Shown: in pieces, positions 8,293 through 37,873 of the stretch
Layout of the letters: every line of letters starts with the position of its first letter
Position numbering within the stretch: position 1 is the first letter of the stretch
DNA from: a bacterium
GTDB taxonomy: Bacteria; Myxococcota_A; UBA9160; SZUA-336
Assembly: GCA_024226335.1 (NCBI GenBank)
Contig: JAAELY010000545.1
Coordinates: forward strand, 10,523-74,522
Direction of reading: 5' to 3'
Length of the DNA: 64,000 nucleotides
The notes under the pieces: generated by a model
The model's input: the letters and a program-made list of their open reading frames with translations, nothing else
Database searches by the model: none
What the model was told of the DNA's origin: nothing
Made by a program: the position numbers and the translations under genes

Positions 8293-8306
8293 CGGAGCCT
8301 GTATGT

Positions 8307-11987: not shown

Positions 11988-12054
11988 CCCGGAGGACGTA
12001 GCACCGCACTAAGGTAGGGACCCATCTCTAGCCAGGTAAAGCGAGGAATTGAAA

Positions 12055-13011: not shown

Positions 13012-13130
13012 CAGGCGTCGAAAACCCGAGCCGGGCCCCGGCAGACCTCTTTCATTCCAGGGTCGCGCGTATGCCACAATGGGGCATACCTGCTCAGAGC
13101 CTCGCCTTCAGCGCGGCCAGCTAGCAATGA

Positions 13131-14114
<984 letters not shown>

Positions 14115-14118
14115 TTAG

Positions 14119-14133
14119 CGGGGGCGGCCCGCG
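14119..14133. terminator. Candidate bidirectional hairpin between the convergent NMO and nirDL genes.
   Basis: GCGGG-GGCGG-CCCGC. Confidence 0.3.
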
Positions 14134-14141
14134 ATAGGAGG

Positions 14142-15152: not shown

Positions 15153-15174
15153 ATCAATTCCTTTCCGCAGCCCC

Positions 15175-17525: not shown

Positions 17526-17599
17526 CGATATCTCCTTCCCATCACGTCTGATGCGCTTCTTGACATGTCCCGAGATCCACTGGTAGAGGACGAGACCTC

Positions 17600-19024
17600 A
17601 TGTTCATACGCAACGCCATACGACTCAGCATCGCCCTTTTCCCCATCGTTGCCCTGGCCGGTGGCGCAGCACCAGACACGGCGGAAGTGTACGCTGCCAA
17701 CTGCGCCTCGTGCCACGGTGTCAGGCGGTACGGAGACTACGCTCCTCCGCTGATCCCGAGCACCCTCAAGCGAAAGAGCGACGAACGCCTGCTGAAGGCG
17801 ATCCTCGAGGGCCTTCCGGCCACGCAGATGCCCCCGTTCGGCCAGTTGATCGACGAGGAAACTGCCAGGAAACTGGTGACCTGGATGCGCCAGCCCGTGG
17901 GCAAAATCCACTGGGACGTCGCAGACGTGGCCTCGAACCGCATAGCCTTCCCCCCAGGGGAAAAGCGGCTCCCCACCTCGCTCGCCCGCGAGCACGTAAT
18001 GCTGGTCGTGGAGCGCGGGAGCGGCAATATCTCGGTGCTCGACCGCAAGCTCGATGAAGTCGACCGCTTCCCCGTCGGACGCGTTCACGGCGGGCCGAAA
18101 TTCGACCTCGACTTCCGGCGAATCTGGGCAACCACCCGCGACGGAACGCTGGTCGTCTACGATCTCGAACGCGGCGGCCTGAGGGCCAAGGCGAAGGTGG
18201 GAGTCAACACCCGCAACGTGGCCGTTAGTCCGGATGGCGCGCTGGTCGCCGCTGCCAATCTTCTGCCGCCGGGCGTGATGCTGCTCGACGCCGACCTGAA
18301 CCCCCTCCATCGACTCGCGCTGGACGGCCAGACTTCGGGAATCTACGCCTTGCCCCATTCGGATCGCTTCATCCTTTCGTTGCGCGACCGCCCCACGCTG
18401 ATCGAGATCCCCTATGCCAAACCGTCGTTGATCGAGACGGCGCTGCCAGAACCCTTTGAGGATTTCACGCTCGTGCCGGGCCGCAACCAACTGCTCGCCA
18501 GTTCGCGCGAAGGCCAACGCATCATGCTCTGGGATCTCAAACAACGGCGAGTCGTTTCGGCACTCGACACGGAAGCGCTGCCTCATCTATTCTCCGCTTG
18601 TTTCTTCGAGCGGGACGGGCGCCTCCACGCGGCTCTGAACCACATGGGCGTGCCGCGCATGTCGATCCTCGACCTCGAGTCGTTCAAGATCGTGAAGGAG
18701 ATCGAACTACTGGGCGCTGGTTTCTTCGTCCGAACACACCCGGGTACGCCCTGGCTCTGGGCCGACACGAACACCGAAGCCATCCAACTGGTCGACAAGG
18801 CCTCGCTGACACTGAGAGAACCGGCACTGATTCCAGAGCGCGGGAAGAAGTCTCTCCATGTGGAATTCAGCGCCGATGGCGCGCAAGCCCTGGTCAGCGT
18901 CTGGAACAAGGAAGGCGCAGTCGTGGCCTACGATTCGCACTCGATTGAAGAGCAACGTCGCTTGCCGTACGCGATGCCGGTAGGGAAGTACAACGCAACC
19001 AACAAGACTCGGCTACTACGCTAG
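17600..19024 (+). CDS. nirN: NirN-like cytochrome cd1-family protein (c-heme domain plus d1 propeller; dihydro-heme d1 dehydrogenase).
   Basis: Signal peptide followed by CASCHG. The propeller domain is homologous to NirS/NirF. At 474 aa it is shorter than NirS, and a bona fide nirS is present elsewhere in the window. Confidence 0.6.
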   Translation: MFIRNAIRLSIALFPIVALAGGAAPDTAEVYAANCASCHGVRRYGDYAPPLIPSTLKRKSDERLLKAILEGLPATQMPPFGQLIDEETARKLVTWMRQPVGKIHWDVADVASNRIAFPPGEKRLPTSLAREHVMLVVERGSGNISVLDRKLDEVDRFPVGRVHGGPKFDLDFRRIWATTRDGTLVVYDLERGGLRAKAKVGVNTRNVAVSPDGALVAAANLLPPGVMLLDADLNPLHRLALDGQTSGIYALPHSDRFILSLRDRPTLIEIPYAKPSLIETALPEPFEDFTLVPGRNQLLASSREGQRIMLWDLKQRRVVSALDTEALPHLFSACFFERDGRLHAALNHMGVPRMSILDLESFKIVKEIELLGAGFFVRTHPGTPWLWADTNTEAIQLVDKASLTLREPALIPERGKKSLHVEFSADGAQALVSVWNKEGAVVAYDSHSIEEQRRLPYAMPVGKYNATNKTRLLR

Positions 19025-19046
19025 CCAGACCGTGTACGTGCACCGG

Positions 19047-19062
19047 TGACGGGCGCGGGTGC
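19047..19062. terminator. Candidate bidirectional hairpin between the convergent nirN and napB genes.
   Basis: GGGCGC-GGGT-GCGCCC. Confidence 0.3.
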
Positions 19063-19070
19063 GCCCAGGC

Positions 19071-19589
19071 TCACTTCTTTGCTTTGTCCCCTCGGAATAA
19101 ACTCTTCAATGACTTGACGTTTCCCGCCTGGGGCGCGTGACACATCGTGCAGTTGAAACGCGTCCCCGCGACATCCTTGGCCTTCTCGTAGCCCTTTACC
19201 CGATTGCGCATAGCGTCGCTCTTCTTGCCCTGCACGATCACTGCGCGTTCGAAGTGCGTCTTGGGCAGAGGCAGATCCTGCTTGCTCGTGGCATTTTCGG
19301 GATGGTGGCACACCATGCATTCGTTGTCGTCCGAAGTGATCGGAAGCATGTCCTCGACGGTATGCGGGATCGAAGGTGGCGCTTCAGAGAAGGAGCGTTC
19401 GATCAGCTTCGATTCGCCAGCGGCCGTCCCGATGTAGTTCGCCAGGTCCTGCCGACTCATCGCGTCGAGATCCGAGTCGCGGAACCAGACATCGAGACCG
19501 TCGTCCACCTCCTTGACTGGATCGGCTGCGGGCGCAAGACCGGGCAGCAAGAGTGCGCTCGCGATCAGGATGCAGAATATCGCTCTCAT
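19071..19589 (-). CDS. napB: NapB, diheme cytochrome c subunit of periplasmic nitrate reductase.
   Basis: Signal peptide. CMVCHHP and CTMCHAP are the two CXXCH motifs. Confidence 0.8.
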   Translation of the reverse strand: MRAIFCILIASALLLPGLAPAADPVKEVDDGLDVWFRDSDLDAMSRQDLANYIGTAAGESKLIERSFSEAPPSIPHTVEDMLPITSDDNECMVCHHPENATSKQDLPLPKTHFERAVIVQGKKSDAMRNRVKGYEKAKDVAGTRFNCTMCHAPQAGNVKSLKSLFRGDKAKK

Positions 19590-20416
19590 GGTGACCCCTC
19601 CTCCGGGCTATTTACCGCGCCTCCGCCGAAGCGGAGCGCGAAGTGATAGGCATCGCGCGGGCACACCTCGAGGCAGCGCGCGCAGTTCAGACAGTTTCCA
19701 TGGTCGATGAAGCCCCGTTGCTCCATCTCGTCGTAGCGAATGACCTTGGGTTCGGGACAGATGCGGATGCAATCGCCACAGTAATCGCAGCGTTCCTGAG
19801 CGAAACGCACACGCAGCAGCGACCAGCGGCCGACGAGTGAATAGAAGGCGCCGAGCGGGCAGAGTGAGCCGCACCAGCCCGGCCGCAGAACGAACAGGTC
19901 GAGCACGAAGATCCCGGCCACGACCAGCAAACCCAGACCCGGACCGTAGATCAACTCTCGATGAGTCATGGCGATCGGACTCAGCCACTCGAAGGCCGCC
20001 ACTCCGGTGATCGCCGAGACCGGCAACGCCAGAAACATGATCCAATAGCGAACGCTGCTGTCCACATGCAGGCTGCGACGACCGTCTAGACGCGGACGCA
20101 GCCAGGCGGCCAGATCCGTGACTGGATTCAGCGGACAAACCCAGGCGCAAAATCCGCGACCTCCGAATACGTACCAGAAGCCGAGTACCGTCACCGCACC
20201 CAACAACACCGTATTCTTCAGGGTATGACCCGTTGAAAGAATCTGCAGAACGGCGTAGGGGTCGGACAGAGGAAGCGTGCGCAAGACTCGAGAGGCCGAG
20301 AGATTCCCCGTCAGTACGCCGAGGTGCCAATGCGCACCTAGCCAGAACAGAACGAGAATTCCGATCTGGGTCGTTCGCCGGGCAAGTAGGTAGCGGTGCT
20401 TCCGTAGCCAACTCAA
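19586..20416 (-). CDS. napH: NapH, membrane-bound ferredoxin-type quinol dehydrogenase subunit (TTG start).
   Basis: TM helices carry CxxCP (FCAWVCP, WCGSLCP). C-terminal [12 protein letters not shown] and [12 protein letters not shown] are two 4Fe-4S motifs. Confidence 0.8.
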
Positions 20417-21207
20417 GGCCCCTCAATTCCAGAGAGATCATCCATCTGCTCGAGTACGCGCTCGAGACTGTTCTCCCATTGCGGCAGGTCCGGCGCCGTC
20501 TCCGGCGCCTTGAAATCACCACTGATGTCCGTTTCTTCGAGCCAACCGAAGCGATAGTTGTCGCCCAGTTTGCCCCGCGCCTGCTCAACGGGCAGCACCT
20601 TGATCGCAGCCTCTTCGAGTACGCAGACGTGCTCACACTTTCCACAGCCGGTGCAGGCGTCGGAATTGACGACCGGAATGAAGTAGGCGTGCTTGCCCGT
20701 GCGCTCGTTCTGCCGGAACTCCAGGCCGATCGCCTGGCCCATGAGCGGGCAGGCTCGGTAGCAGACCTCACAACGCAGACCCTTGTAGGCCAAACAGTTC
20801 TCGTGGTCGACGAGCACCGCGAGCCCCATCTCGGCCTCTTCGATGGGCGTTCCGGACACGAGTGCATCGGTGGGACAAGCCTCGGTACAAGGCGAATCGG
20901 GGCACATTTCGCACGGTACTTTGCGCGGTTCGAAGTACGGCACGCCGATCGCCTCACCGTCTCCAGCCGTCGCGATCTGCAGCGTATCGTAGGGACAGGC
21001 TTCCACACACTGGGAACACTTGATGCAGCTCGCCAGGAAGGCGGGCTCATCTTGAGCACCAGGAGGACGAGGCGCAGAGACGCTGGCTCGCGACTCACCG
21101 GCGACATGCACCCAGGTCATGCCACCAGTCAGCGCCAGAGCCAGGCTCTGCGGCTTGAAAGCCGCCAGGAAACCCCGGCGGCTGACGTCCTTTGCGGGAA
21201 GGCTCAC
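20413..21207 (-). CDS. napG: NapG, periplasmic 4x[4Fe-4S] ferredoxin-type subunit. Probable GTG start at 21207, right after the napA stop; the track extends it to 21270.
   Basis: Tat motif SRRGFLAAF. Four Cys clusters ([46 protein letters not shown]). Confidence 0.8.
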
Positions 21208-21209
21208 GG

Positions 21210-23810
21210 TCAGGCCTTTCGCACTCTCACAGCGCACTTCTTGTAGTCGGTCTCCTTCGAGATCGGACAAGTCGCATCCAGAGTCAGCTTGTTGATCAAC
21301 ACGTTCTCGTCGAACCAGGGCACGAATACCAGACCTTTCGGTACACGATTGCGACCCTGTGTATCAACGCGCACGCGCACCTTTCCGCGCCGCGACTCCA
21401 TCACGACCTCGTCGTTGCGCTTGATGCCACGCGAGGCCGCATCCTCAGGGTGCATCCAACACACCGCGTAAGGCACCGCACGGTTGAGCTCCGCAACACG
21501 CTTGGTCATCGAACCCGAGTGCCAGTGCTCGAGCACCCGACCCGTGCACAACCACAGGTCATAGCCCTTGTCCGGAATCTCTGCGGCCTCAGCGTAGGGC
21601 CGGAAGAAGATCTTCGCGCGACCCGCCACACTCACCTTCTCACCCTTGAGACTGCCGTTCGGGATCTTCTTCAGCGCCTTGCCGTAGAAGTCGTACCCCT
21701 TGCCGGGCTTCACGTAGGGATCGTAGCCCTCCTTGAAGCGCCACTGCGTCTCGCGCCCATTAACCACCGGCCAACGCAGACCTCGCACCTTGTGATAGGT
21801 ATCGAAATCCGCCAGGTCGTGACCATTGCCGAGACCGAACTCGCGGTACTCGGCCCACAGCGCCTTGTGCACGAAGAATCCCGCCTCCTCGGCCACATCG
21901 TTGGGATGGCCATTGGCAATCGGATCGGGCCAGGCGTGCTTCTTGTATTCGGGCCGCGCGAACAGAACTTCGTACAGCGTCTGTTCGGGGTCGTAGCCCA
22001 TCTTCTTGGCATCTGCGAGCACATCGGGAAGCTTGCCGTCGGGGAAACCGTCGACCTTCAGACCGGGCAGTGGCTGCTCCTTCCACACTTCCTTCAGCTT
22101 GAAGCGCTTCGAGAATTCCATCGTCTGCCAGATATCGGCCTTCGCCTCACCTGGAGCCTTCACCTGCTGACGCCAGTGTTGCGTTCGCCGCTCGGCGTTT
22201 CCGTAGGCGCCCCACTTCTCGTAGATCATGGCCGCTGGCAGGACCAGATCGGCGACCTTGGCCGACACCGTAGGATAGGCATCCGAGACGACGATGAAGT
22301 TATCGCCCTCGCGCGCCGCCTTGACCCACTCGTTGGCGTTGGCGAAGTCCTGGAATGGATTGGTCACCTGCGCCCAGAAAAAGCGCACCTTGCCCGACCG
22401 CAACTGGCGCATCATCTTGACCGCGTGCGTCCCCACCTTGGGGTTGAGCGTCTTCGCGGGCAGATGCCAGAGCTTCTCGCTCTTGGCACGATGGCCACCG
22501 TTGAAAACCACCATGTCCGACGGTAGGCGATGCGCGAAGGTGCCGACCTCGCGCGCGGTACCGCAAGCCGAAGGCTGTCCGGTGAGCGAGAAAGCTCCCG
22601 AACCGGGCGTCGACATCTTGCCACCCAGGAGGTGAATGGCGTAGATCTGCTCGTTCACCCAGGTACCGCGCGAATGCTGGTTGAAACCCATTGTCCAGAA
22701 CGAAATGATCTTCTTCTTGCGATCCGAATACAGATCAGCCAGCTCGATCAGCTTCTCCTTCGACACGCCCGAGATCTTGCTCACGTGCTCGGCCGTGTAG
22801 GGCTCGAGCTGCTTCTTGTACTCCTCGAAACTGATCTTCCAGTGTGCGCCGGCTTTGCCGCGCATCTTCTGGCCTTTCTCGCGCGGGTGGTCGGCAGGCA
22901 ATCCGTAACCGATATCCGTCGGGCCGGTTGCAAACACACAGTGCTTGTCGATGAACTCCTTGTCGATCGCCCCCTTCTTGATCATGTGGCGAGCGATGTA
23001 GTTCATGATCGCCAGGTCGGTCTGCGGCTTGAAGATGATCTCGACGTCCGCGAGATCGCTACAACGATTCCCGTAGGTAGAGAGATTGATGACCTTGGTC
23101 GCGGGCTTGCTGAGCTTGCGATCGGTGACCCGCGACCACAGGATCGGATGGCACTCGGCCATGTTCGCGCCCCAGGTCACGACGGCATCTGTCTGTTCGA
23201 TATCGTCGTAGCAGCCCGGAGGCTCGTCGATACCAAACGTCTGGATGAATCCAGCAACCGCGGACGCCATGCAGTGTCGAGCGTTCGGGTCGAGATTATT
23301 CGAGCGGACGCCCGCCTTCATGAACTTGGCGGCGGCATACCCCTCGTCAATCGTGTATTGGCCAGAGCCGAAGACCGCAACACTCGACGGACCGTACTGG
23401 CCGTAGTACTGCTTGAATTTCTGCTCCATCACGTCGAAGGCCTTGTCCCAGGACACCGGAGTGAAGCGGCCCTTCTTGTCGTACTTGCCATCCTTCATGC
23501 GCAAGAGGGGCTTCGTGAGCCGATCCTCTCCGTACATGATCTTGGCGTTGAAGTAGCCCTTGATGCAGTTGAGACCCCGGTTCACAGGCGATTCAGGGTC
23601 GCCCTTGACCGAAACCACACGGCCCTCCTTGGTGGCCATCATGATTCCGCAACCGACGCCACAGAAGCGGCACACGGACTTGTCCCACTTCCAATCCTTC
23701 TGCAGTTCTGCAGCCTGTGCCCGCGCTTCGGGCGGAATGGAAATTCCGATTCCGGTGGCCACTGAGGCCGCAACCGCCGTCTTGACGAACTCCCGTCGCG
23801 TCTGTGCCAT
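21210..23810 (-). CDS. napA: NapA, periplasmic nitrate reductase catalytic molybdopterin subunit.
   Basis: Tat signal [45 protein letters not shown] is the N-terminal [4Fe-4S] motif. 866 aa. Confidence 0.9.
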
Positions 23811-23910
23811 GGATCCCTCCGTGGTATCGCGCCTTGTTGGCGCGTGCCGTTTTGTCCCTGCATCGGGACGGCGGCCCCAGTTACAGCAAGCCGCGTGCCG
23901 ATCCGTGAGT

Positions 23911-24150
23911 TCAGTCGCCGTCGGGCAGCGTCACGGATTCCGCCATTTCAGCCATCGCCACGTGTTCGAGTTGTTGGATTTCACGAAGGCGATCGGCGCC
24001 CTCACCTCCACTGACGGCTTCGATCGTCACCACAAGACGCCCCACACCGTCGTGGTGGTGTACCTGGGCCCAGGGAAACGCGTTTATTGCGGTAGATACC
24101 TTTTCGAGATTCTCGGGACGACACGCGACGACCACGCCAGAAACATTCAC
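23911..24150 (-). CDS. napD: NapD, NapA maturation chaperone (GTG start).
   Basis: 79 aa, immediately upstream of napA ([13 protein letters not shown]...). GAGG RBS. Confidence 0.65.
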
Positions 24151-25124
24151 GATGCACCTCCGTCCGACACGTCCCAGACCAGCACGCGGGCATCATTGCC
24201 CGCGGACAACAACCTGCGGCCTCCGTCGGTAAAACGTAGCACCTGAACCGGTGCAGTGTGGCGATCTAACACATGCGTGACTCGACCGCTCAGCAAGTCG
24301 ATCACCTTGATCCGATCGCCCTGCAGGGCAATGGCCAGACGCCCGCGCACACGATCAGCCGCCAGCGCCGTAATATAATGATCGTCTCGATAGAGTACGC
24401 GAGGCTCGGAACCGTTCAGGTCCCATACGAGCAGGCGTTTGTCCTTGCTCGCGGTGGCCAGTCGCGTTCCCGATAGCCAGGCCAGTCCGAAGACGCTGTC
24501 GCGGTGCCCGCGCAACACGGACGCCGTCTCTCCATTGGAGATGTCGATCAACTGCACGCGACTCGAGCGAAGCGCCACCGCCATCTGCTTCCCGTTCGGA
24601 CTCATGGCCAGAGCGTAGACCGGATCGTAGTCGAGCTGGCGGCGGAAGCGCTCCTCTCCGGTCGTCACGTCAAACAGGCTGACTTCTCCTGTCATATGGC
24701 CCAGGAAAAGCCGATCGTCGTCGACGAAACGGCAGGTCGTAACTCGAGCCAGTTCGAACTGATGCGTCGTTTCCGGGCGACCGTCAGCAGTGAAACGCCA
24801 GAACCGCAAGCGGTCATCGGAAGCCGCTACTGCGACCCGCGTTCCCGAGGGCGACACAGCGACACAACTCACGGTTGCCGGAAACTCCTTCTCTCCGGCA
24901 TCGATCACGAGCAGAGGAGCAAGCACGCGCTGCCTGCGCCAGTCGAGAACATCTACATGACCGGACTGCGTCGCTACCAGTAGTATCGATTCGCGCAACG
25001 CGCCGTCGAGCACCATGTGGTCTGCGCGCATCTCGGCCTCGAGTTGCGCGTGGGCTGGAGTGGCTAGAAAAAAGGCCGAGAATAGAGCGGCTGCAACACC
25101 GACCCGCGCGTCAGCCGTCCTCAT
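24147..25124 (-). CDS. napL: Periplasmic WD40 beta-propeller protein, NapL-like.
   Basis: Signal peptide (AALFSAFFLATPAHAQ). Repeated WD-like blades (RLLVWD, ARVLVWDV). Embedded in the nap operon, overlapping napD as ATGA. Confidence 0.5.
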   Translation of the reverse strand: MRTADARVGVAAALFSAFFLATPAHAQLEAEMRADHMVLDGALRESILLVATQSGHVDVLDWRRQRVLAPLLVIDAGEKEFPATVSCVAVSPSGTRVAVAASDDRLRFWRFTADGRPETTHQFELARVTTCRFVDDDRLFLGHMTGEVSLFDVTTGEERFRRQLDYDPVYALAMSPNGKQMAVALRSSRVQLIDISNGETASVLRGHRDSVFGLAWLSGTRLATASKDKRLLVWDLNGSEPRVLYRDDHYITALAADRVRGRLAIALQGDRIKVIDLLSGRVTHVLDRHTAPVQVLRFTDGGRRLLSAGNDARVLVWDVSDGGAS

Positions 25125-26334
25125 AGCGGAGTTGACCGTTGTTGATGGCCATTGCGACCTTCACCATGAGCGTGAACAGCAGCGCTCCGATCGACCAGAC
25201 AGCTGCACCAACCATGAGTTCGTTCAGGCTCGGGTTGTAGGCGTAGACCTCACCCAATGCGTCGGGCGTCATACCGGGAAGCAGCAGACCGAGACCCTTC
25301 TCGATGAACACACCCAACACCGCGAGCGCACAACCCAGGTTCAAGACGGCGATGCGGTGGCGCAATACCGGAATTACGAAGATCACAAAGGCCGCGAGGT
25401 TGCTCAGCAGTGCCGTCCAGGTGTAGATGGCGATGTCAGTGCGCTCCGCCGTTCCAAACCACTGGAAGTGTCCGTGGGTCGTGTGGGCCGTTTCGAAGTA
25501 GAACTCCTTGAATACCTCGACGCCCAGGAAGAACAGGTTGACGGCCATCGCGTAGGCCAGCAACTCGCCGATCTTCAGCAGAGCGGTGTCCGTCAGGCGC
25601 ATATGCCCAACACGACGCAGGATCTGGAAGATCAGCACGAGAAGGGCGGGACCCGAGCAAAACGCGCTGGCCAGGAAACGCGGCGCAAGTATGGCCGTGT
25701 GCCAGAACGGCCGCGACGCCAGACCCATGAAGAGGAAGGCCGTCACGGTATGGATGAGGACCGCCAGTGGAATCGACAGGAAGATGACCGGCATGATGAA
25801 GGCGGCGTTGTACTTCTGGCCAAGGAAGCTCTTGTAGAGCAAGTAGGTGACGATGAAGTAGTTGACCAGCAGGTACAACGAGACCACCAGGATGTCCCAT
25901 ACCAATAATGATGATGGGAAATTCGGTTGACCGACCCCGGGCATCAGGTGCCAGATCACTTCGGGTCGGCCGACGTCGACGTTCACGAAGAGAATCGCCA
26001 TCACGATGGCCGCCACAGCCACGAGTTCTCCGACCAGGACCAGTTCCTTGATGGGCCCCCAGTCGTAGATATAGGCGGGTATCACCAGCACGACTGCCGC
26101 GGCTGCCACACCCACGAGAAACGCAAAGTTACCGATGTAGAAGCCCCAGGAAACCTGATCGCGCATGTTCGAGGTGATCAGGCCGTTCTGGAGCTGATTG
26201 GCGTAGGCGAGCCCGCCGACGGCAATCACGACCAGGAGTACGCCGATCCAGGTCCAGTAGCCGGAGTGCCCCCGTGTAACCACGGAGATGCTGCCCTTCA
26301 CGAAGCTCAAGAAATGGAGGAGTACCTGTCTCAT
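25111..26334 (-). CDS. NrfD/PsrC-family polytopic membrane quinol-interacting subunit.
   Basis: ~10 TM, 407 aa. Follows the NrfC-like FeS protein. Confidence 0.65.
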   Translation of the reverse strand: MRQVLLHFLSFVKGSISVVTRGHSGYWTWIGVLLVVIAVGGLAYANQLQNGLITSNMRDQVSWGFYIGNFAFLVGVAAAAVVLVIPAYIYDWGPIKELVLVGELVAVAAIVMAILFVNVDVGRPEVIWHLMPGVGQPNFPSSLLVWDILVVSLYLLVNYFIVTYLLYKSFLGQKYNAAFIMPVIFLSIPLAVLIHTVTAFLFMGLASRPFWHTAILAPRFLASAFCSGPALLVLIFQILRRVGHMRLTDTALLKIGELLAYAMAVNLFFLGVEVFKEFYFETAHTTHGHFQWFGTAERTDIAIYTWTALLSNLAAFVIFVIPVLRHRIAVLNLGCALAVLGVFIEKGLGLLLPGMTPDALGEVYAYNPSLNELMVGAAVWSIGALLFTLMVKVAMAINNGQLRYEDG

Positions 26335-26339
26335 GGCGC

Positions 26340-27272
26340 TTACCCGTAGAAATAGAAGAACTTGGGGTTGGTCTTGAGTTCCGCTTTGAGCACGAAGGTT
26401 CGCTTGTGCTTGAGCAGATATCGGATCTCGCTATTCGGGTCGAGCAGGTTCCCGAACTTGCGCGCGCCAACCGGACAGGCCTCATGGCATGCCGGGTAGC
26501 GTCCCTCGCGCACCCGCTGAATACAGAAGGTGCACTTCTCCACGACACCCCGCGGTCGCGGCCGATTGCCGATGATATGCGTATCGGTATTGATCTCGTC
26601 CTTGGGAATACTCGGCTCACCCCAGTTGAAGTGGCGCGCGCCGTAGGGACATGCGGCCATGCAGTAGCGACAGCCGATGCACCAATCGGAATCGATCACG
26701 ACGATGCCGTCCGCTTCCTTCCACGTCGCTCCAGTCGGGCAAACACTGGTACACGGCGAGTCCTCACAGTGCTGGCAGGCGATCGGGAGATACATCTTGT
26801 CTTCAGCGGGCACTTTTTCGTGGTCGTAATAGGCGTTGCCATGCTCGAGGTCGATGCCGCGTATCATGTCCTCGCGCTCGAACTCGAGCACGCGGATCCA
26901 GTGGATCTCAGGATCGCGGGACTGGTTGTTCTCCGCCACGCATGCATACTCACAGCGTCGACAACCGATACAACGGGATACGTCGAGACCGTAGCCAAAG
27001 ACCACACCGTCGACGGGCCCGGTGGCCTTCACCTTCATGTCGACGCCGAGCTTCTTGGAGTACTTGCGCTCGAGGCGCTCCAACACCTCGGCCAGTTCTT
27101 CGTCGGACATCTCGCGGAAGTGCTTCTGCAGAAAGGTCTCGAAGTCGAAGGCCTGCGCGGCGCCTGGAACGGCCGCCGCGGCGCCAATACCCGCCAGCGA
27201 CGTCTTCAGGAACTCGCGGCGCGAGGCACCGCGTTCTTTGCGCTCTTGCGGCTTCGCGCTAGCTCGCTTCAT
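26340..27272 (-). CDS. NrfC/PsrB/DmsB-like 4x[4Fe-4S] electron-transfer subunit with Tat signal. ATG at 27270-27272.
   Basis: Tat signal SRREFLKTSLAGIGAAAAVPGAAQA. Four clusters: CIGCRRCEYAC, CQHCEDSPCTSVCP, CIGCRYCMAACP, CTFCIQRV...CHEACP. Confidence 0.75.
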   Translation of the reverse strand: MKRASAKPQERKERGASRREFLKTSLAGIGAAAAVPGAAQAFDFETFLQKHFREMSDEELAEVLERLERKYSKKLGVDMKVKATGPVDGVVFGYGLDVSRCIGCRRCEYACVAENNQSRDPEIHWIRVLEFEREDMIRGIDLEHGNAYYDHEKVPAEDKMYLPIACQHCEDSPCTSVCPTGATWKEADGIVVIDSDWCIGCRYCMAACPYGARHFNWGEPSIPKDEINTDTHIIGNRPRPRGVVEKCTFCIQRVREGRYPACHEACPVGARKFGNLLDPNSEIRYLLKHKRTFVLKAELKTNPKFFYFYG

Positions 27273-27900
27273 CGTGCGGCTCCTTGCCGGCGATTGCCTC
27301 CGGCCGGCGTGGTGGGCGCTTCGGCTCGATGGGCTTGAAAGGTGGATTGTGCGGATCGTGGCAGACCACACATGTGCGGTATTCCTTCGGACCCCACCAA
27401 TGCCCCGTGCGCTTGCCGTGCACGCCTGCACGCCAGTCGGGCAACTTCTTGGCGTGGCACTGTGTGCACAGTTTCCACGAGTCTTCGAACGGAATATTCG
27501 TATCGTCGGCTAGACGCAGTTTCTGCCGATCCCGCGGATTCGGATTGTGGCAGCTGTAGCACCAGAGATTGCCGTGCGCGAAATCCAGTTCGTCGTGCTC
27601 GTCCTCCAACTCGCGCACATCGCGCTCTGGGAGATCGCTCGACTCGTGGCAATCCGAGCACGGCAGGTAGTCGTCGGCGATTTCGGGTGCAGCGAGAAGA
27701 ACGGGTTCGGGCTCGGGCGGCAACGTGCGACTTGCCGATGGGCGCGGAGTGTCGGGATCGAAATCGGTCTGCACCGAGAAGAGCACGAACGCCAGAAGCA
27801 CTGCCCCGCTGATCACAGCCCAGGTCGCCATCTGGTGTGGAGGGGGCGCCCACTCCCCCTCGACTTCTTCTCCCGGTTGACCGGAGTCACCTTCCGCCAT
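27259..27900 (-). CDS. Membrane-anchored tetraheme cytochrome c (NapC/NirT/NrfH-like).
   Basis: One N-terminal TM helix (WAVISGAVLLAFVLFSV). Four CXXCH motifs: CSDCH, CYSCH, CTQCH, CVVCH. Confidence 0.7.
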   Translation of the reverse strand: MAEGDSGQPGEEVEGEWAPPPHQMATWAVISGAVLLAFVLFSVQTDFDPDTPRPSASRTLPPEPEPVLLAAPEIADDYLPCSDCHESSDLPERDVRELEDEHDELDFAHGNLWCYSCHNPNPRDRQKLRLADDTNIPFEDSWKLCTQCHAKKLPDWRAGVHGKRTGHWWGPKEYRTCVVCHDPHNPPFKPIEPKRPPRRPEAIAGKEPHDEAS

Positions 27901-27902
27901 GA

Positions 27903-28511
27903 CTACTCAGGGTCGTCTGCCGTCGGGTCGTAACCCTCGGGCACAGGGTGGGCGATCTTCTTCAAAGCCTCTTCGTAGTCGAAGCCCGATTTGCCGCCGT
28001 CGGAGCAACTGTAGCGTTCAGGATCCCAGGCTGGACTTTCGTCGTTGTGGCAGGCGACGCAGACCTTCTCGCTCTGTTCGACCAGACCCTTCGAGAGCGC
28101 CTTGTCTCGGTCGATCATGACCTTCTTCTTGCGATAGTCCTTGCCCGCACCGTGGCAGGATTCGCACTGCACACCGGCGGTGCGAACGAACTTGCGCGAT
28201 ACCATCTCATCGGGCACGCCGTGGGCCGTCACGTGGCACTTCACGCATTCGTCGGCCTTCTGGGGATCTCCGAGACCCTTCTCAGTGGCCCACTTGCGAG
28301 CCTTGTCACTCGCAAGCGTCTCGAACGCCTTGCTATGCAGTGAATCCTTCCACCAGGCGTACTGATCTCCGATGGCTTCTTTCTCGTGACAGGACTTGCA
28401 CTTCTTCACGCCGACAAACTTGTGGTCTTTGGCTTGAACGGATCCCGGACCAACAACCAACAACATCGAAAATACCAGCAGAAAAAGAGTCATTACGCGC
28501 AAGCCAATCAC
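27903..28511 (-). CDS. Periplasmic tetraheme cytochrome c.
   Basis: Signal peptide. Four CXXCH motifs: CKSCH, CVKCH, CESCH, CVACH. Confidence 0.7.
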   Translation of the reverse strand: MIGLRVMTLFLLVFSMLLVVGPGSVQAKDHKFVGVKKCKSCHEKEAIGDQYAWWKDSLHSKAFETLASDKARKWATEKGLGDPQKADECVKCHVTAHGVPDEMVSRKFVRTAGVQCESCHGAGKDYRKKKVMIDRDKALSKGLVEQSEKVCVACHNDESPAWDPERYSCSDGGKSGFDYEEALKKIAHPVPEGYDPTADDPE

Positions 28512-28590
28512 GATCCCGTCTCCTTACGACTGAAGCGCCCCGCAAAAAGGGGACGCTTCAGTTAGATGACGCTCACCCTCCGTGAACGCT

Positions 28591-30207
28591 TCAGTAAATA
28601 TCGTGAACTGTGTTGTACACGTTCCACTTGCCGGTGGGCGTTTGCAGCCAATCATTCTTGAGGCGCTGCTTCTCCTTCAGCGTCTTGTCGTCGTAAATGA
28701 TGACCTCGCCCTGCTTGTCCCATACCGACGCCCATACTTCATCGCCCGCCTTGTTGTACTCGAAGTGGACGATCTTTCCGTGGTCGGTGGCCTTCCAGCA
28801 CTTGGCACCCTCGTCGAAGGCGTCCTTTCTGAAGACACAGATCTGCTGGTTGTCGCCCTTTTCCTTGGACAAAGTTGCGTCAGTCCAGACGTGATTGCTC
28901 TTGGGATGCGTCTTCAGGAACAGTCCGGGACCACCGGTCTCCTCCTCTCGGACGACCTTCCAGGCGTGCTCCGGATGCCCGGCCGGGTCCGACCCGTACA
29001 CGGATATGAGTCCTTCACCTAGATGGGTGGTTGCGCTCACCGGTCCGTATTTCGGGTCTACCCAGTTCGCACCGCGTCCGGGATGTGGCTTTACCCCGGT
29101 CTCGAACTTGGTCACGAACTTCTTTTCCTTTGTATCCACGACGACGATCTGGTCACGCATGTTCGCCGCGATCAGGAGATAGCGCTTGGTGGCGTCCCAA
29201 CCTCCGTCGTGCAGGAACCGCTCGGTCGCGATCTGCGTCATCTTCAGGTTGTCGAGGTCAGAGTAGTCCACCAACCAGACCATTCCGGTCTCTTTGATCG
29301 CCACGACCCACTCGGAGTCGAAGTGCGAAGCGATGATCGTCGCCACGCGCGGTTCCGGGTGATACTCGTTTGTATCGTAGGTGGAGGATCGGGTGGAGAT
29401 GACCTTGATCGGCTCGAGGGTCTGTCCATCAACCACGACCATCTGCGGCGGCCAGTAGCAACCGACGATCGCCAACTTGTCGCGGAAGTCACCCTTGGGT
29501 CCCTTGTACTTCGAAACGTCAACGGATCGCGCGTCCAGGCAGACACGAACCTCGGCCACCACCTCGGGCTTCTTCTGGTAGAGGTCGATCAGGGTGAGCT
29601 TGCCGTCGCGACCGATCGTGTAGAAGTAACGACCGGTGAAGGAAGCTCGGAAAATGTGAACGGCGAAACCGGTCTTGAGGACGCTTACCGCCTCCTTGGT
29701 GTCGCCGTCAATGATTGCGGCCTTACCAACGTCGCGCAGGATGTAACCGAAGGTGTTGTCGATGTCCCGGCTGTGTTCGGGCTTCTTCGGCCGCTTGGAA
29801 ACCGGAATGTGGACCTTATGGGTCTCCTTCATCTCCTTCAGGCTCATCTCCGGCGGAATCGGCACCGGATTCTGTACAAACTTCGCCATCAGGGCCGTCT
29901 GGGCCTTGGTCATCTCACCTGTTCGGCCCCAGCCGGGCATTCCGGCGTCGGTACCTTCGAAGATCGTCTTTTCCAATTCGGGAAGCGTCTGCTCCAACAT
30001 CTTCTTGTCGGTGATGCCGGGGCCGGTAGCGCCCTTGCGAAGCGCACCGTGACAGCCGGAGCAGCGGTCGAAATAGATAAACTGCGCTTCCTCAAACTCC
30101 TTCTCGGAAAGCTTGGGAGCCGTTGCACCGCTGGCAATCGAGGGGGCGATCAGTGCAGTCGTCGCCAGGACCACCGCGAAGAACCGAAAAATTCGCAAGC
30201 CTGTCAT
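28591..30207 (-). CDS. nirS: Cytochrome cd1 nitrite reductase NirS. ATG at 30205-30207; the track ORF extends to 30429.
   Basis: MTGLRIFRFFAVVLATTALIAPSIASGA is a signal peptide. FDRCSGCHG is the heme c site. Followed by a d1 propeller ending ...TGKWNVYNTVHDIY. GGAGG RBS. Confidence 0.85.
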   Translation of the reverse strand: MTGLRIFRFFAVVLATTALIAPSIASGATAPKLSEKEFEEAQFIYFDRCSGCHGALRKGATGPGITDKKMLEQTLPELEKTIFEGTDAGMPGWGRTGEMTKAQTALMAKFVQNPVPIPPEMSLKEMKETHKVHIPVSKRPKKPEHSRDIDNTFGYILRDVGKAAIIDGDTKEAVSVLKTGFAVHIFRASFTGRYFYTIGRDGKLTLIDLYQKKPEVVAEVRVCLDARSVDVSKYKGPKGDFRDKLAIVGCYWPPQMVVVDGQTLEPIKVISTRSSTYDTNEYHPEPRVATIIASHFDSEWVVAIKETGMVWLVDYSDLDNLKMTQIATERFLHDGGWDATKRYLLIAANMRDQIVVVDTKEKKFVTKFETGVKPHPGRGANWVDPKYGPVSATTHLGEGLISVYGSDPAGHPEHAWKVVREEETGGPGLFLKTHPKSNHVWTDATLSKEKGDNQQICVFRKDAFDEGAKCWKATDHGKIVHFEYNKAGDEVWASVWDKQGEVIIYDDKTLKEKQRLKNDWLQTPTGKWNVYNTVHDIY

Positions 30208-30334
30208 CGTAGGACCTCCATACGCGCGCTGGTTTGCAAGCGGCATGCCCGGAGAGACGTTCTCGGGGACCGCCGGATAGTGCCGAATCTGCTGACTCAT
30301 CGGGTGCAATACCCTACAGCCCGCATTCAAACTG

Positions 30335-30347
30335 TGACAATTCGTCA
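30335..30347. promoter_or_regulatory. Palindrome TGAC-aattc-GTCA ~130 bp upstream of the nirS start; possible CRP/FNR (Dnr/NnrR)-type site with atypical N5 spacing.
   Basis: tgacaattcgtca. Confidence 0.2.
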
Positions 30348-30392
30348 AACGCAATCTCTTATAAGGTGCGGCTAAGTGGCGCAGACTAGCAA

Positions 30393-30788
30393 CTAGCCCA
30401 CGTCTGCGAGTGTGGTCGTTGAGGCCCACGAACGGAAGGCTTCACTCATCTGGACCCAGGCCGGATGCAATGGGCAGGGATCGCTCGGGTCACACGCACC
30501 CCAACCGAAAACACACCGGTCGTCACCGGGATAAGCGTCGACCGCAGCCAGGATTTCTGTAAAGGGAATCTCCGACGGTGGACGCGCCAGCTCGAAGCCC
30601 CCTCCCACTCCTTTGTAAGACTCGAGCACCCCGGCCACGACGAGACGTCGGAGAATTTTGGCCAGATACGGCGCGGGAATGCCCGTCTCATTGGAGAGAT
30701 CGCGAGCGCGGACCGGCGTCTCGTCGGGATTCGCCGCGAGCCAGGCCGCTGCGCGAAGAGCGTATTCGGCTGTCTGTGACAGGACCAT
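30393..30788 (-). CDS. nsrR: Rrf2-family transcriptional regulator, NsrR-like NO sensor.
   Basis: N-terminal wHTH (TAEYALRAAAWLA..). Three-Cys cluster CVFGWGACDPSDPCPLH. Upstream of nirS and divergent from the nnrS-like gene. Confidence 0.75.
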   Translation of the reverse strand: MVLSQTAEYALRAAAWLAANPDETPVRARDLSNETGIPAPYLAKILRRLVVAGVLESYKGVGGGFELARPPSEIPFTEILAAVDAYPGDDRCVFGWGACDPSDPCPLHPAWVQMSEAFRSWASTTTLADVG

Positions 30789-30801
30789 CCGCTGCCCGAC
30801 C

Positions 30802-30826
30802 TCGTTTCGCAGTCTCGTTTCGCAGA
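30802..30826. repeat. Tandem direct repeat 2x ctcgtttcgcag (1-nt spacer) in the nsrR/nnrS-like divergent region.
   Basis: cctcgtttcgcag t ctcgtttcgcag, seen directly in the sequence. Confidence 0.5.
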
Positions 30827-30876
30827 TTTCGTCCCGCCCTGGTGCTGCAAAACATGGACCGGAAGAACTCGATATC

Positions 30877-30889
30877 TGCTACTGTAGCA
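30877..30889. promoter_or_regulatory. Inverted repeat TGCTAC-T-GTAGCA in the nsrR/nnrS-like divergent promoter region; candidate Rrf2 operator.
   Basis: Perfect 6-1-6 palindrome in the sequence. Confidence 0.3.
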
Positions 30890-30961
30890 TCCTGGTGGAC
30901 CAACGGATCTGAAGGTCCACTATCCCCCCCATGGATCATCGCAGGCGAGGAGGCTCGAGGA

Positions 30962-32404
30962 ATGTCCGCGTCCGGAAGCATGCCGCAACCGGAAGAGTCG
31001 CCCGTCGCACGCCTGTGGCTGGGACTCTCCCTGTTGGTGCTGGTCTTCGCGGGCCTGTTTGCGCTGGCCGTGGTCGTCGCTCGAACGCCACCGTTCGACC
31101 GCCTGGTGACCGATCCACTGTTCTTCAAACGATGCCTGGCCGCGCACGTAAACCTGGCCCTGGTCGCGTGGTTCTACTCCTTCCTGGCCGGCCTGCTCTT
31201 CCTGCTTCCGGGACGCGAACGCCCCGGGTGGCTGGCGAGGCACTCGGTCCATATCGCTGGCACGGGCATCGCCCTTTTACTCGTCGGCGCGTCCATGCCC
31301 GGCGGTCGCCCCGTACTCGCGAACTACATCCCGAGCATCGACCATCCACTTTTCCGCACGGGTCAGTTCCTGTTCGGCCTGGGCGTTCTCACCAGCTTGT
31401 TCGACCGTCGGTTGTTCTGGGCGCGCGATGCGGTATCGGGCCCCCTGCAACTTTCGGATGCATGTATCGCGGGCCTGCGGGTTGCCGCACTCGGACTGTT
31501 GCTGGCGTTGCTTACTTTCGGTCTCTCCGCCCTGAGCCTTCCGGCGGGACTCGACCCCGATGCGCGCTGGGACTTGCTGGTATGGGGCGGGGGCCACGTT
31601 CTTCAGCTGGTTTGTGTAATCGCAATGCTCTCGGTCTGGCTGCTGTTGCTCACACCGGTACTGGGCAGACCCCCGGTCAGCGGCCGGGGCGCGACCTGGA
31701 TCTTCGGCGCGATGCTCATGCCCTGGACCCTGGGCCTGCTCTTCCTGCTTCAGGGAACCGGGAGTCCGGCCTATCGGACCGGCTTCACCTCGCTGATGCA
31801 GTGGGGAATCTTCCCGCCCGTACTGGTGTTTCTGGCACTGTGCGGACGCGCGTTGGTACTCGCCGTGCGCGAGCAGCGCATCGGCCGACGAGCTTTCGGC
31901 GATCTGCGCATATCGGCCTTCCTGGTGAGTGCTGCACTCACCTTGGTGGGCTTCGCCCTCGGTGCCTCGATCCGCGGATCGAACACGATGGTACCGGCGC
32001 ACTATCACGCCTCGGTCGGTGCGGTGACGGTGGCCTTCATGGCGGCCGCCTACCCGATACTCGCCTGCTTTGGGCTGGCACTTCCCACTGCGCGGATGCG
32101 CAAAGCCGCGGCCTGGCAGCCGCTATTGTACGGTGGGGGTATGCTAGTGTTCGCAGCCGGTTTTGCGCTTGCGGGCGCCTACGGCATGGGCCGAAAGGTC
32201 TATGGCGCCGAACAGGCAGCGCGAGGGCTGGCCGAGTCGGTGGGGCTGGGCTTGATGGGGTTTGGCGGCTTGATCGCAATTGTCGGGGGAATGCTTTTCC
32301 TCGTCGTGGTCGCCAACGCCTGGTGGCGCGGCATCGAATCGGATGAACCGATTACTCTTCACCTGGGACGGAGGTGGCGCTTTGGAAACGAAGAACACGG
32401 ATGA
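30962..32404 (+). CDS. 12-TM membrane protein, NnrS-like (heme/copper membrane protein of NO-responsive regulons). Assignment tentative.
   Basis: 12 predicted TM helices. Intramembrane His in TM2, TM3 and TM6, plus HYH in TM10. GAGGAGG RBS before the ATG at 30962. Divergent from the Rrf2 gene. Confidence 0.45.
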   Translation: MSASGSMPQPEESPVARLWLGLSLLVLVFAGLFALAVVVARTPPFDRLVTDPLFFKRCLAAHVNLALVAWFYSFLAGLLFLLPGRERPGWLARHSVHIAGTGIALLLVGASMPGGRPVLANYIPSIDHPLFRTGQFLFGLGVLTSLFDRRLFWARDAVSGPLQLSDACIAGLRVAALGLLLALLTFGLSALSLPAGLDPDARWDLLVWGGGHVLQLVCVIAMLSVWLLLLTPVLGRPPVSGRGATWIFGAMLMPWTLGLLFLLQGTGSPAYRTGFTSLMQWGIFPPVLVFLALCGRALVLAVREQRIGRRAFGDLRISAFLVSAALTLVGFALGASIRGSNTMVPAHYHASVGAVTVAFMAAAYPILACFGLALPTARMRKAAAWQPLLYGGGMLVFAAGFALAGAYGMGRKVYGAEQAARGLAESVGLGLMGFGGLIAIVGGMLFLVVVANAWWRGIESDEPITLHLGRRWRFGNEEHG

Positions 32405-32427
32405 AAAGCATCCCATTCAACGGCTCA

Positions 32428-32537
32428 TGGACAACCCGTGGCTACTACTCGTGCTGGGAGTCTTGATCCCGACCGTGTCCTACACGATCTGGGGCTGGAT
32501 CGAGTTACTGAGCACGCCTGCGGCCACACTACCGTGA
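32428..32537 (+). CDS. Candidate 36-aa single-TM peptide, possibly an oxidase subunit IIa analogue.
   Basis: MDNPWLLLVLGVLIPTVSYTIWGWIELLSTPAATLP lies directly upstream of the one-TM CuA subunit II. The RBS is weak. Confidence 0.3.
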
Positions 32538-32559
32538 CGGTCCGGCAAGGGAGAACGAT

Positions 32560-33087: not shown

Positions 33088-33108
33088 GAGAGGCCGCGAT
33101 GACCACGA

Positions 33109-34847: not shown

Positions 34848-34863
34848 TCGTGGAGAAACGACG

Positions 34864-37834: not shown

Positions 37835-37873
37835 CAAACTCGGTAGAATCCCTGCGGATTCGGCCGAGCCTCA

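Follow-up and report, generated by a model that had tools for sequence, protein, structure and literature searches.

A 64-kb stretch of contig JAAELY010000545.1 (64,000 nucleotides (nt), called the window below, with positions counted from its first letter) was analyzed for the nitrite and nitrate respiration genes that lie between positions 19071 and 30207. Eleven consecutive genes run here from nirS, encoding cytochrome cd1 nitrite reductase, to napB, encoding the diheme cytochrome of the periplasmic nitrate reductase Nap. An earlier note, made from the sequence letters, had described them as one superoperon, transcribed as a single unit behind an Rrf2/NsrR gene. Open reading frame (ORF) listing together with Pfam and NCBIfam scans bore out the array itself, with 11 of 11 genes on the minus strand. 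The G+C content is even throughout the region, at 61.5% for the window and 60.2% for the cluster, and the value of about 65% given earlier was too high. We think it reasonably probable that the region is a mosaic denitrification cluster of separable modules, in an uncultivated bacterium related to metagenome-assembled genomes (MAGs) labeled Deltaproteobacteria or Myxococcota, with an electron path through a tetraheme cytochrome (cytB) and an NrfCD-type module, and with two promoters.

For comparison, about 100 related loci were annotated by tblastn with the window proteins. The loci came from look-ups of identical proteins and from two scans, one covering species-representative genomes and the other metagenome contigs; they are given below as L numbers.

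Gene content and layout of the array

The regulator gene and the eleven genes of the array are listed in the order of transcription (Tat, twin-arginine translocation).

30393-30788, minus strand: rrf2-family regulator gene (Pfam Rrf2, 98.6 bits; TIGR00738, 109.9 bits; C-X7-C-X5-C motif of three clustered cysteines)
28591-30207, minus strand: nirS, cytochrome cd1 nitrite reductase (Pfam Cytochrom_D1, 407 bits, and Cytochrome_CBB3)
27903-28511, minus strand: cytA (Pfam Cytochrome_C554, 68 bits; four CXXCH motifs; signal peptide)
27259-27900, minus strand: cytB (213 amino acids (aa); one hydrophobic segment, residues 25-43, as N-terminal membrane anchor; four CXXCH)
26340-27272, minus strand: NrfC-like iron-sulfur protein (Pfam Fer4_11 and related families; Tat signal SRREFL; four clusters; periplasmic)
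25111-26334, minus strand: NrfD-like membrane subunit (Pfam NrfD, 135.5 bits; about 10 hydrophobic segments)
24147-25124, minus strand: WD40 propeller gene (Pfam WD40 matches; signal peptide; 325 aa)
23911-24150, minus strand: napD, NapA chaperone (Pfam NapD, 72.6 bits)
21210-23810, minus strand: napA, catalytic subunit with molybdenum bis(molybdopterin guanine dinucleotide) (NCBIfam NF010055, 1434 bits, cut-off 904; TIGR01706, 1379 bits, cut-off 930)
20413-21207, minus strand: napG, periplasmic ferredoxin-type subunit (NCBIfam NF007012, 323 bits, cut-off 269; Tat signal SRRGFL)
19586-20416, minus strand: napH, membrane quinol dehydrogenase ferredoxin subunit (NCBIfam NF007013, 342.6 bits, cut-off 234)
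19071-19589, minus strand: napB, diheme cytochrome (Pfam NapB, 79.5 bits; two CXXCH)

The junctions, again in the order of transcription and with negative values for overlaps, are as follows.

rrf2/nirS: 185 nt
nirS/cytA: 79 nt
cytA/cytB: 2 nt
cytB/nrfC: -14 nt
nrfC/nrfD: 5 nt
nrfD/WD40: -14 nt
WD40/napD: -4 nt (GTGA)
napD/napA: 100 nt
napA/napG: 2 nt
napG/napH: -4 nt (TTGA)
napH/napB: -4 nt (ATGA)

Of the 10 junctions within the array, 8 either overlap or are no wider than 5 nt. The earlier description of the junctions as tight or overlapping thus stood, and the range of 3 to 80 nt given for the gaps did not, since napD and napA are 100 nt apart. The co-directional run ends at napB because the next gene, which resembles nirN, converges on it from the opposite strand and bounds the slot of the nap cassette on the downstream side. 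Past nirN, the heme d1 biosynthesis genes resume on the minus strand, and the nap genes therefore lie within the nir cluster.

17600-19024, plus strand: nirN-like gene, with heme c and d1 domains (Pfam Cytochrom_D1, 179.9 bits, and Cytochrome_CBB3)
14142-17525, minus strand: nirJ, nirF and fused nirDL, for heme d1 biosynthesis (TIGR04051 NirJ, 378 bits; Cytochrom_D1, 207.8 bits; AhbA/AhbB siroheme decarboxylase models)

Two minus-strand ORFs (18583-18909 and 17513-18586) were considered as a continuation of the run and rejected, having no family matches and an odd composition; the real gene here is nirN on the plus strand.

NirS is 538 aa long, with a signal peptide, one CXXCH in the heme c domain and a d1 propeller. 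Its start at 30207 is backed by a GGAGG ribosome-binding site, the signal peptide and the starts of orthologues, and the public record MCP4007710, annotated “nitrite reductase”, is identical to it. The rrf2-family gene precedes nirS on the same strand, as it does in L002, L094 and L095; in L023 it follows nirDL. Its product scored 29.8 bits on the NsrR equivalog NF008240, for which the cut-off is 182, so the name NsrR given earlier has genomic context as its basis.

The next two genes encode tetraheme cytochromes. CytA is a soluble periplasmic protein of the c554 family, matched in the PDB by Nitrosomonas cytochrome c554 (1bvb, expectation value (E) 1e-11), and is found beside nirS in most loci that have the nirS core. 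CytB, annotated “hypothetical protein” in a public MAG record, belongs to a family of at least 490 members with four invariant CXXCH and four further invariant histidines. It has no match to Pfam Cytochrom_NNT (PF03264, the NapC/NirT family) at E ≤0.001, though its architecture fits, and a precomputed PF03264 match exists for just 3 of 120 cytB homologues listed. A profile search of the PDB with cytB returned neither NrfH nor CymA; its only match, a marginal one, was to NrfB (2ozy, E 0.014).

The NrfC-like protein, whose gene starts at 27272 and overlaps cytB by 14 nt, scored 198.4 bits on NCBIfam DsrO, just under the cut-off of 200, and 119.8 bits on the NrfC equivalog, far below the cut-off of 377.6. 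Its PDB matches include ArrB (6cz7_B, E 1e-37) and PsrB (2vpw_B), with E values from 1e-33 to 1e-38. The NrfD-like protein passes the NCBIfam DsrP model along its full length (365.8 bits, cut-off 350); its PDB matches, to ActC of alternative complex III (ACIII) and to Psr-type subunits, are weak (E 8e-11), and its label from the NCBI annotation pipeline PGAP is “polysulfide reductase NrfD”. Note that it passes the DsrP equivalog with no dsr genes nearby, so automatic annotation could misassign it to sulfur metabolism. Export signals are of the Sec type for NirS, CytA, NapB and the WD40 protein and of the Tat type for NrfC, NapA and NapG.

In the nap cassette, NapA carries the Tat motif TRREFV and is identical to public record MCP4007703, and the napG start at 21207 agrees with the starts of its orthologues. 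NapB and NapD are above Pfam gathering scores and far under the cut-offs of the E. coli-type NCBIfam equivalogs, and are therefore divergent members. The genes follow the order napDAGHB, without napC, napE or napF in the cluster. NapG and NapH are genuine, as both exceed their NCBIfam equivalog cut-offs, and the earlier assignment to the napDAGHB type was correct. So was the absence of napC: among the ORFs of the 64-kb window there is no NapC/NirT-type cytochrome, and the sole tetraheme ORFs are cytA and cytB, neither of which matches Cytochrom_NNT. No NapF was found in the cluster; the NapF model was matched only secondarily, by NapG and NapH.

Separable nirS core and nap cassette

The genes of the window recur in the related loci in the following arrangements.

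L002/L003/L007 and L010, with partial contigs L009, L017 and L021: full eleven-gene order
L023, L095 and L096: core nirS-(cytA)-cytB-nrfC-nrfD, followed directly by convergent nirN, no nap genes
L004/L005/L008 and L006/L011: WD40-napDAGHB alone
L016: napD-napA-napB without WD40 or napGH, in the same slot after nrfD
L094: decayed nap cassette, in the same slot
L020 and L014: WD40 remnant of 97 aa or 153 aa
L025 and L065/L067/L068: nap genes beside cytB-nrfC-nrfD without nirS

Synteny across related genomes, a check proposed in the earlier note, thus gave a divided answer: the full order is kept in no fewer than four diverged lineages, among which WD40 identity falls as low as 47%, and core and nap cassette also occur separately. 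The nrfD/WD40 junction is tight across the fused lineages (-14, +10, -4 and -4 nt). The order in L025 is napD-A-G-B-cytB-nrfC-nrfD, with napG and no napH; in L065, L067 and L068, napDAB is divergent from cytB-nrfCD. In these arrangements the five-gene nirS core is the conserved unit, and the nap cassette between nrfD and nirN is optional, having undergone gain, exchange and loss. In L094 (CP070734.1, a single 3.67-Mb MAG contig), positions 12854-15554 hold an intact napD, then a 539-aa ORF without a family match, NapA fragments (residues 21-57 and 427-525) and a NapB fragment.

The trio cytB-nrfC-nrfD is more widespread still: over 560 relatives from metagenomes occur in many other settings, frequently next to large multiheme cytochromes. 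Distant copies in L059, L062 and L049 adjoin genes for NtrC-type response regulators with sigma-54 interaction domains (L059 2585-3988, L062 6024-7412, L049 4325-5674), and these loci also encode large multiheme cytochromes with 8 to 13 CXXCH. Because these copies sit with large multiheme cytochromes, the trio may be a general quinol hub for periplasmic or extracellular electron transfer.

The WD40 gene is the first of the nap cassette, overlapping nrfD by 14 nt and napD by 4 nt; the latter overlap is the same in the window, L002, L004 and L010, and where the gene is present it is invariably directly upstream of napD. An AlphaFold2 model predicts a seven-bladed beta-propeller with 27 strands (mean predicted confidence, pLDDT, 92.5), whose only structural neighbors in a fold search of the PDB were generic G-beta propellers (template-modeling score, TM, about 0.82). 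The family comprises about 79 orthologues with 37-70% identity and at least 167 bits, below which scores fall sharply to generic WD40 proteins at 95 bits or less; its members come solely from metagenomes and from MAGs labeled Deltaproteobacteria, Myxococcota or “bacterium”. There was no match in NCBIfam, and plasmid sequences searched by tblastn yielded nothing but generic WD40 proteins. L016, L020, L014 and L025 have lost the gene or keep it in decayed form; what is left of it between nrfD and napD in L020 (6515-6811) and L014 (2859-3416) is a C-terminal piece of 97 and 153 aa, respectively. Because its position overlapping napD is invariable and the gene has been lost in some lineages, the data suggest that the WD40 protein is a dispensable periplasmic accessory or docking factor for Nap.

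Four types of nap operon have been distinguished: napEDABC, napDAGHB, napCMADGH and napAGHBFLD (PMC13223375). The organization seen here had been called typical of Campylobacterota, which is a misattribution, since that group has napAGHBFLD and napDAGHB is a separate type known from Shewanella (PMC13223375; PMC5114592). The Shewanella napDAGHB cluster (NAP-beta) has the same five-gene order, with NapG and NapH and without napC, napE or napF in the cluster (PMC13223375; PMC5114592). In S. oneidensis, only NapA of this set is strictly required, NapGH is dispensable and CymA supplies the electrons, so a separate quinol dehydrogenase may feed such an enzyme (PMC5114592). The present cluster differs from that of Shewanella in several respects: the WD40 gene precedes and overlaps napD; the cassette and a nirS operon are fused; the co-encoded candidate quinol dehydrogenase pairs NrfCD-type subunits with a cytochrome and is not of the NapC/NirT type; and the promoter signals are of the sigma-54 type, whereas Shewanella uses NarQP and Crp.

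The napAGHBFLD clusters of Campylobacterota (Wolinella, Campylobacter) are likewise independent of NapC and contain NapGH. Their napL, for a periplasmic accessory protein of about 30-35 kDa, lies directly before napD, and the WD40 gene here, for a protein of about 32 kDa, has a like position. The two arrangements differ in that napD is first among the nap genes here (WD40-D-A-G-H-B) and last there, and in that napF is missing here. The description of the WD40 protein as NapL-like holds for its size, periplasmic location and place directly before napD; against it, among 120 WD40 relatives listed, none is named NapL and none is from Campylobacterota. We therefore treat the likeness as a resemblance, not as proof of membership. 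NapL is non-essential (PMC10609526), in keeping with a WD40 gene that some relatives have lost or carry in decayed form.

Candidate quinol dehydrogenase and electron paths

In the core, an NrfD-family subunit adjoins a Tat-exported iron-sulfur subunit of the NrfC/PsrB type, the combination that marks an NrfCD module, and the NrfD-like subunit is presumed to hold the quinol site. Judged by gene content and family membership, CytB and NrfCD most likely form a quinol dehydrogenase, similar to NrfBCD or DsrJOP, that feeds NirS and possibly Nap. In functional terms CytB-NrfC-NrfD most resembles NrfBCD, and by sequence it is closest to DsrOP. In the E. coli Nrf system (nrfABCDEFG), a cytochrome, NrfC and NrfD likewise deliver quinol electrons to a periplasmic nitrite reductase whose gene shares their operon. 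The terminal enzyme there is pentaheme NrfA, which reduces nitrite to ammonium, whereas here it is the cd1 enzyme NirS, which reduces nitrite to nitric oxide; NrfB is a soluble pentaheme protein, whereas CytB is a membrane-anchored tetraheme protein, and an extra cytochrome of the c554 type is present here.

The DsrJOP part of DsrMKJOP has the same gene order of cytochrome, iron-sulfur protein and NrfD-type protein. In contrast to that system, the window has no dsrMK or dsrAB, CytB has four hemes and no match to triheme DsrJ, and the context is one of nitrogen oxides. Because dsrM, dsrK, DsrJ and dsrAB are all missing from the window, the NrfD-like protein, as far as its sequence and neighbors tell, resembles DsrOP and belongs to no Dsr system. 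ACIII (ActABCDEF) also combines modules of the NrfD and NrfC types with an anchored multiheme cytochrome, oxidizes quinol and reduces periplasmic acceptors, and in the PDB its subunits 6f0k_C and 6btm_C match the NrfD-like protein best, a weak similarity with E from 1e-6 to 1e-11. The complex encoded here would have three or four subunits, and lacks the molybdopterin-like ActB domain, the second NrfD-type subunit, ActD and ActE.

NirT, encoded in the nirSTB cluster of Pseudomonas stutzeri, is a dedicated membrane quinol dehydrogenase, a single tetraheme protein that binds quinol itself. Its gene is directly downstream of nirS and it could bypass the cytochrome bc1 complex (bc1), as CytB-NrfCD might here. 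The quinol site in the present case is presumed to be in the heme-free NrfD-type subunit, unlike that of NirT, and CytB does not match the Pfam NapC/NirT family.

From these likenesses we infer the following electron path. The NrfD-like membrane protein would oxidize quinol and pass electrons through the four iron-sulfur clusters of the NrfC-like protein to membrane-anchored CytB; CytB would reduce soluble CytA, and CytA the heme c domain of NirS. The core module would thus be a quinol:cytochrome oxidoreductase serving the cd1 enzyme. Parallel to this path, NapH and NapG would oxidize quinol and reduce NapB, and NapB would reduce NapA. NapB may receive electrons from CytB or CytA as well, a role that the unrelated CymA fills in Shewanella, and the nitrite made by NapA would be consumed by NirS in the same compartment.

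That CytB-NrfCD can feed Nap too is probable by analogy, because relatives hold napDAB behind nrfD without napGH and because CymA provides a precedent (PMC5114592). The earlier statement that NapGH stands in as quinol dehydrogenase overlooks the co-encoded CytB-NrfCD, the relatives that keep napDAB without napGH in the same slot, and the supply of Nap by CymA in the model napDAGHB organism (PMC5114592). A stronger version, in which CytB-NrfCD is the shared principal quinol dehydrogenase for NirS and NapAB, NapGH is auxiliary, and the whole is one branched network possibly held together by the WD40 protein, is a serious possibility that we nevertheless rate as the lesser one. L016 (napDAB after nrfD, no napGH), L025 (a nap cluster with napG only, then cytB-nrfCD) and L065, L067 and L068 (napDAB adjoining cytB-nrfCD without nirS) all speak for it, as does the dispensability of NapGH in Shewanella, where CymA feeds Nap (PMC5114592). 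These loci have to be set against a window in which NapG and NapH are intact and above equivalog cut-offs, and against stand-alone WD40-napDAGHB loci with no cytB-nrfCD within 10 kb; contact of CytB or CytA with NapB is, moreover, purely conjectural.

Promoter-like elements and transcription

Sigma-54-type (-24/-12) elements were sought on the coding strand upstream of genes as GG and GC exactly 10 nt apart within TGGCACG-N4-TTGCW. Two such elements were found in the cluster.

30235-30250, minus strand: element GGGCATGCCGCTTGCA, 28 nt upstream of the nirS ATG (10 of 12 consensus positions)
23885-23900, minus strand: element CGGCACGCGGCTTGCT, in the napD-napA spacer, 75 nt upstream of the napA ATG (11 of 12 consensus positions)

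Over both strands of the 64 kb (128 kb in all), the exact pattern GGCAYN5TTGCW has two occurrences (30235-30249 and 23885-23899), against 0.46 expected; each falls in one of the cluster's two long gaps and is on the coding (minus) strand. When the sequences preceding nirS were aligned for five lineages, only the blocks GGCAT and TTGCA, with five bases between them, proved invariant, and the flanks diverged. The nirS element is present in 7 of 9 lineages, L094 and L095 included. The napA element is found in 4 of the 4 fused lineages that could be assessed, at 75 nt (the window and L002/L003/L007), 62 nt (L010) and 61 nt (L020) from the start codon. When the spacers were subjected to 5000 composition-preserving shuffles, the observed score was reached by 2, 18, 4 and 38 shuffles for napA and by 8 to 127 for nirS, which corresponds to frequencies of 0.0004 to 0.025 per spacer. 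No FNR/DNR boxes were found upstream of nirS in the fused loci. The stand-alone nap cassettes have their signal ahead of the WD40 gene, of the sigma-54 type in L006, L011, L012 and L013. A good FNR/DNR-type box (TTGATCTAGGTCAA, 9723-9736) was seen in L004 alone, where it precedes the stand-alone WD40-napDAGHB cassette and has a Crp/Fnr-family gene as a near neighbor; one and the same cassette is thus wired to different regulators across lineages.

A GC-rich hairpin with the arms CACGCGCC and GGCGCG (23811-23880, minus strand) closely precedes the napA ribosome-binding site in both the window and L002, and L006 has a related one; a transcript from the internal promoter would carry this hairpin in its 5' leader. 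Rfam gave no match in the window at the gathering threshold and none in 18900-31000 at E up to 1, so there is no recognizable molybdenum cofactor or other riboswitch in the napD-napA spacer. Two further hairpins were noted between genes.

28529-28562, minus strand: GC-rich hairpin in the nirS-cytA gap, right after the nirS stop (13-nt arms, 92% complementary; no U tract)
19050-19067, minus strand: short GC hairpin in the 46-nt gap between napB and nirN (no U tract)

The earlier note had seen no terminator-like hairpins until after napB, whereas the strongest intergenic one directly follows nirS. The gap that contains it has a predicted folding energy of -37.6 kcal/mol (z-score -3.3), and the hairpin is the best intergenic inverted repeat in 19000-30900 and unique in the window. 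It was rejected as a repeated element, being a single copy in the window with none in relatives. Positions 28512-28600 (minus strand) hold about 60 nt between nirS and cytA that are missing in the relatives and are flanked by a 10-nt direct repeat, ACTGAAGCGT, of which one copy lies across the nirS stop codon and the other forms the 5' arm of the hairpin. This extra sequence looks like a small insertion or duplication.

The transcription we infer from these features is as follows. The promoter-like element 28 nt upstream of nirS would drive the core, and the transcript would probably continue at least through napD, because nrfD and WD40, and WD40 and napD, overlap. The second element, in the napD-napA spacer, would allow separately controllable expression of napAGHB. 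The lineage-specific hairpin after nirS may attenuate read-through or stabilize the nirS message.

A single operon with one promoter downstream of rrf2 and strict co-expression of nitrate and nitrite reduction, as the earlier note proposed, is in our view doubtful. The close junctions argue for it, with nrfD/WD40 tight in every fused lineage, and so does an order kept over large divergence. A consensus scan revealed no sigma-70 promoter or canonical terminator above chance; the sites were no more numerous than in shuffled sequence, and the scan is uninformative either way. The position of napD upstream of the candidate internal promoter also means that NapA maturation needs upstream transcription anyway. 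These points are opposed by the predicted promoter element between napD and napA in 4 of 4 assessable fused lineages, with a second element before nirS, by the strong hairpin after nirS, and by the occurrence of the two halves apart in relatives, each with promoter signals of its own. The internal promoters that the earlier note had proposed to search for thus have in silico evidence in one place, the napD-napA spacer. On this balance the napA part probably has its own internal promoter and a single promoter for the whole array is unlikely, while read-through from nirS to napB is plausible.

It is unlikely, and less likely than the single operon, that the -24/-12-like motifs are not promoters at all, having arisen by chance or reflecting RNA structure or the site of another protein, with real promoters of another type. 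The genomes are GC-rich, there is no activator gene or rpoN nearby, and three further matches reach the same score threshold in the window, at 31258 and 50675 inside ORFs and at 39130, about 60 nt upstream of nosZ. A comparable match between nrfD and WD40 in L009 and L017 was rejected, as it falls inside the coding sequence of the WD40 signal peptide. Chance or another site would have to account, however, for a GG-GC spacing that is exact in every case, half-sites that alone are invariant while their flanks diverge, a conserved distance to the start codon, the low shuffle frequencies, and the NtrC-type sigma-54 activator genes that adjoin the same cytB-nrfCD module in L059, L062 and L049. It is exceedingly improbable that a chimeric contig joined nir and nap genes of different organisms: the source is a MAG, but overlapping stop and start codons join the modules, the G+C content is even, and the same order in independent assemblies, made from differing samples and sources (a 116-kb NCBI MAG contig, a separate 14.7-kb contig, contigs from the Joint Genome Institute and MAGs with the isolate prefix Meg19), excludes it.

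Several points weigh against the mosaic reading that we prefer. The nirS element is absent in L023 and L096, and a search of the window and of 10 kb around each fused locus turned up neither a sigma-54 activator gene nor rpoN; the activity of the promoters and the ends of the transcripts are predicted from sequence. The hairpin after nirS is unconserved, being absent in L002 and L010, where the gap is about 16-30 nt. The proposed transfer from CytA to NirS follows from gene adjacency only, and cytA is missing in L095. CytB is without a solved or characterized relative. Finally, the internal promoter could only supplement read-through and not replace it, because napD lies upstream of the element and a transcript of napAGHB only would yield NapA without its chaperone; to this extent the single-operon picture is partly alive.

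Neighboring genes and significance

Divergent from rrf2, a plus-strand set (30931-38803) encodes two proteins similar to subunit I of heme-copper oxidases, a COX2-like cupredoxin, SCO1, a fused cytochrome b/ferredoxin/FlpD protein and a UbiA-type prenyltransferase. One of the subunit I-like proteins has no NCBIfam match, and the other scored 78 bits on CtaD, for which the cut-off is 670. The set is kept beside nirS in L002, L006, L023, L095 and L096 and is a candidate for an unusual nitric oxide reductase that would complete the denitrification pathway. It is followed on the plus strand (39130-48372) by a region with nosZ of the Sec-dependent type (clade II; TIGR04246, 875 bits) and, after it, genes for a diheme cytochrome, nosD, paralogues of NapG and NapH (44375-46242), nosF and nosY. 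The sigma-54-type element at 39130 reads TGGCATGCGAGTTGCG.

On the other side, a long minus-strand ORF (7159-8736) joins a TetR DNA-binding domain to two DUF2249 domains and could in fact represent two separate genes. Genes for AurF-like di-iron oxygenases (2506-3603, minus strand; 12049-13011, plus strand) and for a nitronate monooxygenase (13143-14114) flank the nir genes.

Every component described here is from a known protein family, and the genes are already in public MAGs. In the literature that could be searched, no account was found of a nirS operon that also encodes a c554-type cytochrome and a quinol dehydrogenase of the NrfCD type, of nap cassettes headed by a WD40 gene behind a nirS core, of Myxococcota nir/nap clusters of such an arrangement, or of sigma-54-type signals before nirS, napA and nosZ.

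In textbook denitrifiers, the cd1 enzyme is fed through bc1 and small cytochromes or cupredoxins, and nir and nap are under the control of FNR-family factors. The present cluster, together with its numerous uncultivated relatives, suggests a different wiring, with an NrfCD-type quinol dehydrogenase and its own tetraheme cytochromes within the nirS operon, nitrate reductase cassettes that plug in and out of one fixed slot, and sigma-54-type signals. No principle is overturned by this. Going further, we put forward, tentatively and with less confidence than the mosaic reading itself, that CytA-CytB-NrfC-NrfD is an uncharacterized, bc1-independent quinol:cytochrome c oxidoreductase, dedicated to the cd1 enzyme in a large uncultivated clade and also feeding NapAB, with the WD40 protein as an adaptor for Nap and with sigma-54 activators, not FNR, DNR or NnrR, switching the network. 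If CytB-NrfCD does also feed NapAB, this would explain the repeated insertion of nap genes directly behind nrfD, in some cases without NapGH. Confirmation would flag the annotation trap posed by an NrfD-like protein that passes the DsrP model outside any sulfur context, would make cytB and the WD40 gene marker genes for metagenome surveys, and would mean revising how much energy these bacteria of sediments and low-oxygen zones are assumed to gain from reducing nitrite and nitrate.

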